Assembly: GCA_964518955.1 (NCBI GenBank)
Contig: CAZFHS010000021.1
Coordinates: 31,058-95,057 of the forward strand
DNA from: an uncultured Gemmatimonadaceae bacterium
GTDB taxonomy: Bacteria > Gemmatimonadota > Gemmatimonadetes > Gemmatimonadales > GWC2-71-9
Direction of reading: 5' to 3'
Length of the DNA stretch: 64,000 bases
This document shows positions 3,725 through 59,433 of this stretch, piece by piece. The notes beneath the pieces were generated by a model. It worked only from the letters and a program-made list of their open reading frames with translations, ran no database searches and was not told the origin of the DNA. A program made the translations under genes and the position numbers. Each line of letters begins with the position of its first letter. Within the stretch, counting starts at the first letter, position 1.

Positions 3725-4435
3725 ATGATTTCCGTCGTATTTCCGGTGCACAATGAACTGAACAACCTGGCGCCTCTTCTGGCAGAGGTGGAAGATGCGC
3801 TCGGAGGCGTAGCGTTGGAGGTGGTTGCTGTAGATGACAGCTCGACAGATGGTTCGCTGCAGGAGTTGCGGCGCCTCCAAAAAGAACACGATTCCCTAAG
3901 GGTCGTTTCCTTGGCTCGACATTCCGGGCAGTCCGCCGCCTTCGTTGCTGGAATGGATAGGGCGCGTGGTGATTTGCTGGTGCTAATGGACGCGGACGGA
4001 CAAAACGATCCGGCAGATGTGCCGGCGATGCTCGCCATACTCGACCGTGAACCCGACTGTGCAGCCGTCGTCGGATATCGAATCAACCGGGCCGATTCGA
4101 GCTGGAGGCGTTTGCAAAGCCGCATCGCAAATGCGGTCCGAAACTGGCTCACCGGAGATCGGGTTCGGGATACAGGATGTTCGTTGAAGGTCGTTAGGCG
4201 TGCGGCGGCCAGAGATCTGGTATGCTTCGACGGCATGCACCGGTTCTTTCCCACGCTCATTCGGAGATCTGGCGGGAAGGTGATTGAAACGCCTGTCTCT
4301 CACCGCCCTCGGCTGAGAAGCAGGAGCAAGTACGGAATGTGGAACAGAGGCTTGGTGGCGCTAAGGGATGCGCTCGGCGTGCGTTGGCTGAGAATCAGGC
4401 GTCTCGACTACGAATCGAGAGAGGAAACTGGATGA
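3725..4435 (+). CDS. Glycosyltransferase family 2 (DPM1/ArnC-like polyprenol-phosphate glycosyltransferase)
   Basis: VVFPVHNE, VDDSSTDGS, MDADGQNDP, DTGCSLK, GMHRFFP, HRPR..SKYG. Confidence 0.9.
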   Translation: MISVVFPVHNELNNLAPLLAEVEDALGGVALEVVAVDDSSTDGSLQELRRLQKEHDSLRVVSLARHSGQSAAFVAGMDRARGDLLVLMDADGQNDPADVPAMLAILDREPDCAAVVGYRINRADSSWRRLQSRIANAVRNWLTGDRVRDTGCSLKVVRRAAARDLVCFDGMHRFFPTLIRRSGGKVIETPVSHRPRLRSRSKYGMWNRGLVALRDALGVRWLRIRRLDYESREETG

Positions 4436-5553
4436 ATCATGGTGAGTCGGGTGCTCCTGCTTTCGGACGGTTTTTCATGCCGGGTCTGAGCGAAGTACAC
4501 CCATCGGTTCTCGACGCCATGTCCAAGCCGACGATTCCGCATCGTGGTCGAGAAATGGTGGAGCTGCTGAAGCGCATCGAATTGAGGCTCAAACAACTGT
4601 TTCGGACCAAGCGTCACGTACTCGTCGGAACCTGTTCCGCTACGGCGTTCATGGAAATGGCTGTCAGATCCGGAGTAAGGGGGCGCGCCCTTTGCCTGAT
4701 TGGGGGAGCGTACGGAGAGCGTTTTGCAGGCATCACCGAGGCGGTAGGGAAAGACGTCGTACGATTGAACGTTCCATTGGGACGCACCGTCGAGCCCGAT
4801 ATGCTTGCAGATGCGCTGAAACGATCCGCCGTCGATGCGGTGACGATCGTACACTCTGAGTCGTCGACCGGGGCGCTGGCTCCGCTGCAGGAACTGGCTG
4901 AGGTGGTGAGCGAATTCGACGACGTGCTCCTGCTCGTCGATGGAGTGACATCAGTAGGCGCCTCCCCCGTGGAAACCGATCTGTGGGGCCTCGACTACGT
5001 GTTCACTGGCTCACACGGAGCCCTCGCGCTTCCACCCGGACTCGCAATGGCCGTCGCTTCGGAGCGTATGACCGAACGAGCGGCAGCCATTCCGGAGCGT
5101 GGCGCTTTCCTCGATATCATAGCCTACCAGGAAGCGGCGGAAACGTATCAACCGACGTTCACTCCAGCGATGACGCTCCTCTTCGGCCTGGAACAACAGT
5201 TGATGAGGATTCAAGATTCGGGTGGAATTGAGGCTCGCTGGGACCGCCACGACGCTATGCGGAAGACGGTCGAGTGGTGGGCGGAAGAGGAGGGGCAGAA
5301 CAACTGCGTCGGGTTCTTGCCGCCGGATGGGCGTCGGTCATGGGCGGTGTCGTGCCTCAGAACCCTCGGTGGGAAAAATGCGCGCGTCCTCGCCAAGTCG
5401 CTCGAGTTGGAAGGTTTTCGTGTTGGCTCGGGTTACGGCAAGCTCAAGCGGGAGACCCTCCGCATTGGGCATATGGGGGACCACTCAGTCGAGGAGCTGA
5501 AAGAGTTACTCGGCGCGCTCGGCGCGCTCGTCTCCGGGGCTGAGTCTGAATGA
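4432..5553 (+). CDS. Class V aminotransferase homolog (AGXT/SPT-like) lacking the PLP-binding lysine
   Basis: [35 protein letters not shown]; canonical GSQK reads GSHG. ATG overlaps the GT2 stop (ATGA). Confidence 0.85.
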
Positions 5554-7623
5554 GCCAACCGCCGAGGTGAGGTTCAGGGCGGCATCGGCTAACAGGGTAG
5601 CGGATCGGGCGATATCGTCGGTTGTCTCCGTTTGCTCTTGGGCCGCTGTCGCTATTTCGCGTGATGCCGCAACCACGGCTTCGGTACCGGCCGCGATCGT
5701 CTGAAGGCGACGCGTGATATCTTCCACGAGCTTTTTTACGTCTCCTGCGGCACTCGAGATTTCATCGCTCCACGCGCTCGACTCTGCCGTTGCACCGGCG
5801 ACCTCCTTGAGGGCAGCGGCGGCTGATTCGGCAATCTGTCGCACGTCAGAACTTGCTTCTGCCAGCCTCGTGAGCCGGTCGCGCGTCTCCTGAACCGTCG
5901 CCAACACGCTACCTACCACATCGGCTGTGGTCGTGGCTGACCTGGATGCTTGCGTTGCGAGTTTCCTCACCTCGTCAGCTACTACTTCGAATCCACGTCC
6001 CTCACCCCCACCCGCTCGAGACGCCTCGATAGCAGCGTTGAGCGCGAGCATGTTCGTTTGCGAGGCGATCGCCTGCGCTTGAGTCACGAACTGTTGAATC
6101 TCTTTCGAGAGGTCGGCAAGTGTCTTAGCCTCGGCGGCGCCCAGTTCGAGGTCGCTAGCGAGATCTGCAAGCTGCTCACTGCCCGCTATCAGGTGCCTTT
6201 CGTGTTCGCGGGCGGTTTCGCTGAGTGACGAACTCCGTTCTGCAGCCACGTTTGCACCGTCAGCGAGGTTCGACGATATGCCAAGAATCCTGCTCGCGTC
6301 GTTGGCTGCCTGCCTGGCGAGTTCGGCCTGCTCGTTAGCTTGGCTCGTGAGGTCCCGGCAGGTATCGGCCATCTGCTGGATTGACGTGGTCATTTGCTCA
6401 GTGCTGGTGGATATCAGCTCGGCCATGGCCGCCGATTCATGTGAGGACGATCGTATCTCACCGACCAGCTTGCGCAGGGCGTCGACCATGGTGCGAACAG
6501 CCTCCAAGAGGCCGGTGACTTCCTCCGCACCTTTTGGGTTGGATACTACGGCTACAGAGAGGTCCCCGTCTGCAACGCGGGCCGCGATCGAACCTGCTAC
6601 ACGCACAGGCCTGGTTACGCGACGGTGGAGCCATTCGGTGAACCAGATCAACAGCACGATTGCTGCGACCAAAGCAACGCCGGCCGCAAGGTAAACCGCG
6701 TCGCGAATAGACCTCGCCGCAGTGTACGCCACAGCCTGGGGTTGTCTGTGCACGATCCACCATCGGCCGGAGTTGGTGGGCGCTGTCGCGACTAGCTCTC
6801 CGTCGCCAGCCCCCCCTACTGCGGGCAACGAGTTCGTCGTCGACGAAGCAGTGCTCGATATGAGTTCTGACACGTCGCTCACCGCAAGCAACCTGCTGGG
6901 ATCACGTGACATTATCACACGCCCGGCCGAATCCACGGCTTCGATCGTTGCTTCCATCGACTCACTGCCGAGCGACAGTAGTCGAGTCAACCTCGAAAGT
7001 TCGACCACTGCTTTCAACACTCCCAGAGGTTCGCCCGAGTAGGAGTCGTCTATTCGGACGGCCAGTTCGAGGCCTACGGTACCAGCCGACTCGTCAAAAA
7101 GCGGCTCGCCCTGATATGTGCCGATCTCGAACGCCTCTTCCCACCATTCCTCATCGGATTGAACGAAGTCAGACGTTGTACTGCTTGCGAGGACCACCAG
7201 GCCGTGTACCTCGGTGAAGAAGACTTCCACGAAATCGGATGAATCTCTTACGATTTGCAGGAATCGCCGGATAGTCTCGTCTTCACTGAGCGCGCGCGTC
7301 TCCTCGTAACGCCTCTCCAGCTCAGCGGTCGATAGTCGGTCGAGCCCCCTTCGCGCGGCCACGATCCCAGCTGACCGAGTTGCGGCGACAATGCTCGGTG
7401 TGTTCGCGAGTATTCGAACGTCAATCGCTCGTTCGTCCAGGTATTGGGTCACCTGCTCCGCAACGCGTTCGGCTACCGCTCGAAGCTGTACACCGGCAGT
7501 TCGCTCGAACTCTCGTGCCACGCTCCGGCTGGCTACGTATGCACTGAATGCAATCGCCGCGATTGCCACCGGCGTGCCGGCGACTATGATGCGACGTCGC
7601 AATTCCCGTGTTCTACTCGCCAT
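5506..7623 (-). CDS. Methyl-accepting chemotaxis protein (TM-dCache-TM-HAMP-MA)
   Basis: [32 protein letters not shown] signalling hairpin; two TM helices flanking a Cache-like region; start re-called to ATG 7623. Confidence 0.92.
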
Positions 7624-7669
7624 ACGTGAGCCTTCCTGGGGAAGCAAGCAGTGCTAGATTAACCCTACC

Positions 7670-58185: not shown

Positions 58186-59433
58186 CTATCCTATACCCAG
58201 CCCAGGCGGTGGAAAGTCTTTGCAGAACTCGGCGATTTCTGCCGCGGTGTTTGCCATGAATCCTTCGTCATCGATGCGGTCGACCACCTGGTTCATCCAG
58301 ATCGCGACTTGCTGCATCTCAGGTTCTTTCATACCCCTCGACGTAATCGATGGTGTACCAATACGAATGCCAGAGGGGTCGAAAGGCTTGCGCGGGTCGT
58401 ACGGCACAGTGTTGCTGTTGCATACGATTCCCGCCCTGTTGAGAGCTTGTGACACGACTTTGCCCGGCTGTCCCTTGTTGGTCATGTCGATCAGTATCAG
58501 GTGGTTGTCTGTTCCGCCCGATACCAGATCAAATCCGTGGTCGAGCAATGCGGCGGCCAGTGCTTTTGCGTTCGACACAACCTGTTCGGCATATGTTGTG
58601 AACTCGGGTGTCGCAGCCTCCTTGAGGGCAACAGCGATTGCTGCAGTCGTATGGTTGTGCGGTCCGCCTTGAAGTCCCGGGAAAACCGCCCTGTCGATGG
58701 CTTTTTGATGTTCGGCCTTGCACATGAGCATCGCCCCACGGGGGCCGCGCAACATCTTGTGCGTTGTGGTGCTCACCACGTCAGCGTGCGGTACTGGACT
58801 CGGGTGTACTCCTGCAGCTACCAGTCCCGAGATGTGAGCGATGTCTGCGACAAATATCGCACCCGCTTCACGGGCAATCTCACCGAACTTTTCAAAGTCG
58901 AGTATGCGCGGGTACGCTGTGGCTCCAGCATAGATTAGTCTGGGCTTCTCAGCCAACGCCTGATCCCTGACCTTGTCGTAGTCGATTAGGGCTGTTCCCC
59001 TCTCGACCGGGTACTGGACCGCACGATAGTACTTGCCGGTGATGCTGACATTCCACCCGTGGGTCAGATGGCCGCCGTGTGGCAAACTCATGCCCATTAC
59101 CGTGTCGCCCGGTTGGCAGAACGCGAAATACACGGCCATGTTGGCCGGTGAGCCGGAGTATGGCTGCACGTTTGCATGATCTGCGCCAAAGAGCTTCTTG
59201 GCCCTTTCGATGGCCAGTATCTCGACCGCGTCGATGTACTCCTGGCCCTCGTAGTAACGCTTGCCCGCGTAGCCTTCCGAGTACTTGTTCGTGAGAACAG
59301 ACCCCGTTGCCTCCAGGACAGCGTTTGAGACATAGTTCTCAGACGGTATCAACCGAATCTTATCTCTCTGTCTATTCTCTTCACGTTGTACCAGATCAAA
59401 GATCTCAGGGTCTGTAGTGTTCAGATGAGCCAT
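58186..59433 (-). CDS. glyA: Serine hydroxymethyltransferase
   Basis: LIPSENY, NKYSEGY..KRYY, GGHLTHG, TTTHKMLRGPRG, FPGLQGGP, SGIRIGT. Confidence 0.97.
   Translation of the reverse strand: MAHLNTTDPEIFDLVQREENRQRDKIRLIPSENYVSNAVLEATGSVLTNKYSEGYAGKRYYEGQEYIDAVEILAIERAKKLFGADHANVQPYSGSPANMAVYFAFCQPGDTVMGMSLPHGGHLTHGWNVSITGKYYRAVQYPVERGTALIDYDKVRDQALAEKPRLIYAGATAYPRILDFEKFGEIAREAGAIFVADIAHISGLVAAGVHPSPVPHADVVSTTTHKMLRGPRGAMLMCKAEHQKAIDRAVFPGLQGGPHNHTTAAIAVALKEAATPEFTTYAEQVVSNAKALAAALLDHGFDLVSGGTDNHLILIDMTNKGQPGKVVSQALNRAGIVCNSNTVPYDPRKPFDPSGIRIGTPSITSRGMKEPEMQQVAIWMNQVVDRIDDEGFMANTAAEIAEFCKDFPPPGLGIG

Follow-up and report, generated by a model that had tools for sequence, protein, structure and literature searches.

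The gene at positions 4432–5553 (+) of the window, by which we mean the whole stretch of 64,000 nucleotides of Gemmatimonadaceae DNA that was analysed, encodes a class V aminotransferase homologue, formerly a phosphoserine aminotransferase by probable descent, in which the Schiff-base lysine has been replaced by glycine. The substitution is conserved throughout a clade of soil bacteria, the serA gene that accompanies the Lys-bearing orthologues is gone from the locus, the gene is under purifying selection and the fold of its product is intact. The reading that seems to account best for these observations, and to which we would give a probability of roughly 0.4 on the sequence comparisons available, is that of a selected pseudoenzyme, which would bind a ligand or a cofactor and would no longer be an ordinary transaminase.

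The open reading frame, whose start at ATG 4432 is backed by the N-termini of the orthologues, is translated without stops into a 373-residue homologue of the class V AGXT/PSAT-like proteins. PF00266 is the sole Pfam family matched by this protein at E ≤ 0.01 (45.5 bits against a cut-off of 21.5), and the closest solved structure is that of P. horikoshii PH1308 (2dr1, E 1e-56), with AGXT-type enzymes coming next. In the HMMER alignments with four solved class V enzymes (2dr1, 2yri, 1vjo and 1iug), the GSHGAL stretch falls on S-Q-K in all four cases, so that Gly196 (codon GGA, 5017–5019) occupies the position of the Schiff-base Lys and His195 that of the conserved Gln, the two codons (CAC GGA, 5014–5019, +) replacing an otherwise invariant Gln-Lys pair. 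The preliminary description of the gene had reported both replacements, at the correct coordinates, together with the retention of the HSESSTG loop and of the Asp of DGVTS, and on each of these points it is borne out, the loop being found at residues 141–147 and the Asp at position 170. The catalytic Lys of the S-Q-K motif, by which a competent PLP-dependent aminotransferase would be recognized, is absent. The AlphaFold model of the protein (pLDDT 96, pTM 0.93) is superposed by Foldseek on 2dr1 with a TM score of 0.92 and an rmsd of 1.8 Å, and exhibits the two-domain architecture of fold type I.

A sequencing error, or an artefact of a single genome, is ruled out by the finding that seven genomes and about 15 metagenome proteins lack the Lys, in agreement with the earlier judgement that a base error was unlikely. 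None of the five genomes of the genus of the window (G000–G004), one per species, encodes the residue, and neither do two species of a sister genus, namely G178 (QG at positions 195–196) and G247 (QE), whereas QK is kept in all 62 other genome orthologues checked, which represent the remaining genera examined in the family and the order. Among the 120 best database homologues (from NCBI, JGI, ENA and Logan, those with a name being from Gemmatimonadota/Gemmatimonadales), 100 have QK and 20 lack the Lys, with HG, QG, NG, YG, QH or QA in its place. The codon for Gly196 varies synonymously between the species of the genus (GGA, GGT, GGC), and the open reading frames of the seven genomes and of the metagenome proteins are intact and full length, at 62–80% identity. 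The alignment of orthologues that had been suggested in the preliminary description thus reveals a loss that is clade-wide and heritable. Each Lys-less genome carries a single copy of the gene, and a close Lys-bearing copy was found in none of them; the next paralogues in the window genome, three Lys-bearing AGXT-like proteins encoded at unlinked loci, are only 29–33% identical, which rules out a Lys-less paralogue kept beside an active copy. In Gemmatimonadota a serC-like gene is normally found ahead of serA, and it is of this gene that the present one is the orthologue, not a paralogue. In the databases the Lys-less proteins are labelled as ‘alanine--glyoxylate aminotransferase family’ or as ‘predicted phosphoserine aminotransferase’. 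One genus (G020) contains two Lys-bearing copies (L035 and L103), one of which adjoins serA, the other being fast-evolving and abutting the gene of a methyl-accepting chemotaxis protein (MCP) without serA.

The gene neighbourhood is informative on the ancestry of the protein. By counting one locus per genome, and only those loci with enough downstream sequence, serA was found directly downstream of the aminotransferase gene in 54 of the 62 Lys-bearing loci and a convergent MCP gene in three, while in the seven Lys-less loci serA is directly downstream in none and the convergent MCP gene in all seven (one Lys-bearing locus, L022, is from the unpublished genome G018, and dropping it changes nothing). 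The linkage to serA that would mark a phosphoserine aminotransferase is, thus, missing from the Lys-less loci (0/7). In the window, the MCP gene (5506–7647, −) sits where the Lys-bearing relatives have serA and shares 48 bp with the aminotransferase gene at the 3′ ends (5506–5553). The downstream gene of the Lys-bearing orthologues encodes a D-3-phosphoglycerate dehydrogenase, as indicated by PF02826, PF00389, the PGDH intervening domain (PF19304) and an ACT domain. The MCP gene is often found beyond serA in the serA-carrying loci, a GT2 glycosyltransferase gene lies upstream of the aminotransferase gene in at least 10 Lys-bearing genomes, and in the closest Lys-bearing genus (G005) the order is asparaginase, GT2, aminotransferase and serA, that is, the layout of the window plus serA. 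From these layouts it follows that the ancestral cluster is GT2–aminotransferase–serA–(convergent MCP) and that the Lys-less lineage has undergone a deletion of serA. Since the Lys-bearing orthologues are mostly found directly upstream of serA, it is very probable that the protein descends from the phosphoserine aminotransferase of Gemmatimonadota, and the H-R and N-T-P motifs point the same way. At the level of profiles, the window protein scores 75 bits against serC_3 (TIGR01366; cut-off, 401) and belongs to neither of the serC equivalog families TIGR01364 and TIGR01366; the Lys-bearing orthologues likewise remain under the NCBIfam serC cut-off (90 bits), so that the assignment of the ancestral function rests on synteny. 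In the Lys-bearing members of the sister genus g49 (L061, L062, L065 and L068), as well as in L091, the adjacent serA is shortened to approximately 320–334 residues and is without the intervening or ACT domain, and one g49 species (G063, locus L063) has lost serA while keeping both Lys and Phe at the positions discussed below, which looks like a stepwise erosion of the cluster.

The gene immediately upstream (3725–4435, +) encodes an ArnC/DPM-like GT2 glycosyltransferase of 236 residues, and its stop overlaps the start of the aminotransferase gene by 4 bp. This ATGA overlap, which bears on the translational coupling to a polyprenol GT2 stated in the preliminary description, is real and recurs in one other species, a third species having a gap of about 35 bp. 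Only the tight overlap is derived, and it is not present in all species of the genus; the GT2 being an ancestral neighbour, its link to the aminotransferase gene carries no functional weight. For the same reason the GT2 was rejected as a clue to an ArnB/ArnC-like amino-sugar route: it is also upstream in the above-mentioned Lys-bearing genomes, where serA follows. The identification of the GT2 as specific for polyprenol phosphate is plausible rather than established, because of the small size of the protein and because its matches to the longer ArnC and PgfS profiles end early, at positions 213 of 316 and 207 of 308, respectively; the best NCBIfam score is 105 bits against a cut-off of 529.

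As to selection, NG86 estimates of dN/dS in the 10 species pairs within the genus are in the 0.04–0.13 range, values that are rough owing to saturation of dS, to be compared with 0.07–0.32 for Lys-bearing pairs at similar identity. In the core clade 216 of the 373 columns are at least 90% conserved, and the divergence from the outgroup is mildly greater for the Lys-less proteins (50–53% identity) than for the Lys-bearing ones (54–62%). Thus, the gene is not decaying, and the whole fold is kept by purifying selection. The absence of a key catalytic residue and the conservation across species under purifying selection, which together characterize pseudoenzymes, are both observed.

The fate of the individual residues of the pocket was followed by comparing, column by column, 100 Lys-bearing homologues with the Lys-less set (18 proteins) or with the genus clade. 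Eleven columns that are invariant in the 100 Lys-bearing proteins are altered in the genus clade, namely P19L, T20S, G72A, F94Y, R107 (Lys or variable), Q195H, K196G, Y226 (variable), N243Y/F, T305A and W329F/Y. Only three changes are common to the Lys-less proteins as a whole: the loss of Lys196 (to Gly, Ala, His or Glu), Phe94 to Tyr (18/18, versus 0/100 in the Lys-bearing proteins) and Ala171 to Gly (17/18, versus 13% of the Lys-bearing proteins, 81% of which have Ala). Judging from the alignments, positions 94, 171 and 196 are first-shell cofactor positions. Tyr94 (TAC, 4711–4713, +) is at the presumed ring-stacking position, where Lys-bearing proteins have Phe, and is aligned with W102 of E. 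coli PSAT, which stacks on the cofactor ring (PMC9309667). Gly171 directly follows Asp170 (4939–4944 for the pair, +), the ligand of the cofactor N1, which is invariant across an alignment of 63 sequences. Also invariant in the Lys-less clade are the HSE(S/T)STG loop; the family-wide His37-Arg38 motif (4540–4545, +), the putative site for the substrate phosphate; the T244-P245 pair; and Arg344 (5461–5463, +), the Arg of the R-I-G-H-M-G motif that would bind the substrate carboxylate. Of the motifs expected of a phosphoserine aminotransferase, H37-R38 and T244-P245 are kept, while the Asn of N-T-P is replaced by Phe or Tyr in the genus clade (Phe243-Thr244 in the window protein, 5158–5163, +); Thr244 corresponds to the PLP-phosphate ligand contributed by the partner subunit, a role taken by T240 in E. 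coli PSAT (PMC9309667). The very pocket residues that are retained here have disappeared from two old Lys-less clades in the wider family, and by this comparison the pocket of the present clade, unlike theirs, is not abandoned.

By taking these data together, the following course of events may be proposed. A class V AGXT-like phosphoserine aminotransferase of Gemmatimonadota would have been the starting point; serA would have been deleted from the cluster in one lineage, comprising the genus of the window and part of the sister genus, and the Schiff-base Lys would have been replaced, mostly by Gly, together with the Phe94 to Tyr and Ala171 to Gly changes around the cofactor ring. The genus clade would then have altered more residues of the pocket, at positions 19, 20, 72, 195, 243, 305 and 329. 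Without Lys196 no internal aldimine could form, and a residue to act as base in the 1,3-proton shift would be missing from the Lys side, so that normal ping-pong transamination is not expected. To judge from the conserved Asp facing the ring nitrogen, the Thr on the phosphate side and the newly fixed Tyr, the protein may continue to bind a B6 vitamer non-covalently, Tyr94 possibly compensating for the lost tether; the retained His-Arg and Arg residues point to continued binding of a phospho- or carboxylate ligand. In the genus clade the binding of PLP may have been weakened or lost because Asn243 and Gly72, which are aligned with PLP-phosphate contacts of E. coli PSAT, and Gln195 are changed. 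No output partner for a role as sensor or regulator was identified. Of the three possibilities raised in the preliminary description (pseudoenzyme, sensor or non-catalytic subunit), a pseudoenzyme, or more generally a cofactor-binding protein that is not a transaminase, is the most plausible class, while the subunit is unsupported, as no close Lys-bearing partner is found.

Catalysis that does without the Lys is nearly as likely as a pseudoenzyme binding a ligand or cofactor, and should be regarded as a possible, if still doubtful, reading. The cofactor, as PMP or free PLP, would be bound non-covalently, Tyr94 and/or His195 would serve in acid/base catalysis, and a new reaction would be carried out, either a PMP-dependent one or one in which a proton is transferred from the other face of the cofactor. 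The constraint equals that on the Lys-bearing orthologues, and constraint of such enzyme-like strength would fit a new catalytic role equally well; moreover, the ligand-binding residues are all retained, and Tyr94 is fixed and recurs independently together with the loss of Lys. In other fold-type-I enzymes the stacking residue is on the ring face opposite Lys, and this geometry, if it holds at position 94, would count against Tyr94 as a substitute for the Lys. His195 is present in 9 of the 12 core-clade proteins but is not conserved, other members having Gln, Asn or Tyr; in P0043 and P0296 a His has taken the place of the Lys itself. New partner genes of a pathway are absent around the locus, both GT2 and MCP belonging to the ancestral cluster. 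A precedent is offered by ColD, E1 and SpnQ, PMP-dependent sugar 3-dehydratases with the aminotransferase fold, homologous to sugar aminotransferases, in which the catalytic Lys is replaced by His (PMC8987622). Like the window protein they are fold-type-I aminotransferase homologues without the Schiff-base Lys, and they show that a Lys-less pocket can stay catalytic. However, they form another subfamily, with His at the Lys position and nucleotide sugars as substrates, whereas the window protein belongs to PF00266, outside the sugar-aminotransferase subfamily, and has Gly at that position and a neighbouring His that is not conserved.

In the trees, the Lys-less sequences and Lys-bearing sequences of two sister genera fall in one starred clade, and both FastTree and IQ-TREE place two changes within Gemmatimonadota. 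When the Lys-less set is constrained to one clade, lnL is above that of the free tree (p-AU 0.60), a result that is compatible with a single origin in this phylum, as favoured by the serA deletion that the Lys-less loci share; on these two grounds a single origin within Gemmatimonadota is preferred to multiple ones. In the wider family, sampled through 150 representatives of 50%-identity clusters, 129 have the Lys and about 20 are without it, the latter in at least four lineages. One of them is in Planctomycetota, where residues 94 and 195–196 are Y/QQ in P0197, Y/QG in P0291 and F/QE in P0292, while their nearest relatives are F/QK and 113 further homologues are all F/K, the loss being, thus, recent and independent; the locus of P0197 has no serA nearby. 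Since the Tyr is present in two of these three proteins, the coupling between the loss of Lys and the change of Phe to Tyr arose at least twice; Tyr occurs together with Lys only once in about 340 Lys-bearing sequences (P0205). A broader, and rather unlikely, proposal is that the two changes define a recurrent selected state, reached independently in Gemmatimonadota and Planctomycetota, of B6-dependent enzymes, or of sensors of a vitamer or a phospho-amino acid, that operate without an internal aldimine; the Tyr may there tether the cofactor or act as a base on its opposite face. In any case, the coupling, having appeared again in an unrelated phylum, provides a simple signature by which such proteins can be searched for in sequence data.

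The remaining explanations appear improbable to varying degrees. The active sites of fold-type-I enzymes are assembled from two subunits, and three Lys-bearing AGXT-like paralogues are encoded in the window genome, so that a non-catalytic subunit of a heterodimer with one of them was taken into account. With paralogues so distant and unlinked, and with no Lys-less genome carrying a close Lys-bearing copy, such an arrangement is considered improbable.

Even less should be expected of a residual phosphoserine aminotransferase activity, in which Lys322, Lys337, Lys339 or a water/Tyr relay would stand in for Lys196. The pocket is kept, including His37-Arg38 and Arg344, and a scan of the columns for a compensating Lys, the possibility that the preliminary description had left to be checked, did reveal a single column where a Lys is universal in, and characteristic of, the Lys-less proteins: Lys322, present in 18/18 of them versus 22% of the Lys-bearing ones. 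This residue, however, is in a helix of the small domain (residues 317–326 of the AlphaFold model); Lys339 is equally conserved in the Lys-bearing enzymes, and Lys337 is not universal. Furthermore, the substrate would be lacking where serA is missing from the genome and not just from the locus. Neither serA (TIGR01327) nor serC (TIGR01364) was found above cut-off in G000, G001, G002, G003 and G247, whose assemblies are 86–94% complete, and the first four make up four of the five genomes of the genus. The fifth, G004, from the most divergent species of the genus, has on another contig a canonical serC_1 and serA pair (G004:C76:5110-7875; L046 and L052), with both genes above the NCBIfam cut-offs; this pair, missing from the other four genomes, may be a replacement cassette acquired by horizontal transfer or a contamination. 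In the Lys-less G178, a separate serC-like gene (87 bits to serC_1) is found beside an ACT-domain serA (G178:C108:151-2243; L086 and L092) and may provide an alternative phosphoserine pathway. With serine hydroxymethyltransferase present (in the window at approximately 58297–59424, −; PF00464, 546 bits), serine can still be obtained from glycine, and this is the likely remaining route to it. SerB (TIGR00338) is absent even from the Lys-bearing relatives and is, therefore, uninformative on the loss of the pathway.

Least probable of all is a decaying relic left without function when its pathway partner serA disappeared, for which the eleven altered columns, some now variable (107 and 226), and the mildly greater divergence from the outgroup could be invoked, but which is at odds with the intact reading frames, the low dN/dS values and the conservation of the core clade.

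Pseudoenzymes and Lys-less enzymes with the aminotransferase fold are already known kinds of protein. In the literature that was searched, neither an orthologue of a serA-linked class V aminotransferase that is Lys-less across a clade and carries a recurrent Tyr signature, nor any account of Lys-less class V aminotransferases in these phyla, was found. From PH1308 and the serA-linked Gemmatimonadota group, with which it shares the fold (34–37% identity to 2dr1), the window protein differs in the Lys to Gly, Gln195 to His, Phe94 to Tyr, Ala171 to Gly and Asn243 to Phe replacements and in having no serA downstream; its identity to the Lys-bearing Gemmatimonadota orthologues is 50–67%, with the Asp, HSE(S/T)STG, T-P, H-R and R-I-G-H-M-G motifs in common. 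Another PLP-fold unit that is kept without its PLP-binding Lys is the N-terminal pseudoenzyme module of C. elegans CBS-1 (PMC3316156). This module is a eukaryotic one of fold type II, duplicated and fused to an active module, unlike the window protein, which is a stand-alone bacterial orthologue with no active twin in the genome.

The case is an unusually clean one, in that an orthologue, rather than a spare paralogue, has lost both the Lys and its pathway partner while remaining under strong selection, which implies a second, Lys-independent role of the fold. It is also of practical relevance: with the annotation as ordinary aminotransferases, metabolic reconstructions would include a phosphoserine route to serine for these Gemmatimonadota although they probably do not have it, given that serA and serC are not detected above cut-off in most genomes of the genus.

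The two older Lys-less clades of the wider family (P0164, P0179, P0204, P0206, P0212, P0222 and P0224; P0171, P0175, P0226, P0235, P0262 and P0266) are well supported and resemble the clade studied here in being class V AGXT-like, Lys-less and annotated as ‘aminotransferase’. In them Phe94, His-Arg and Thr244 are missing as well, and so, often, is Arg344, whereas the present clade keeps His-Arg, Thr244 and Arg344 and has Tyr at position 94. One of the two includes proteins from Gemmatimonadales MAGs, and all of their members are annotated as plain aminotransferases.
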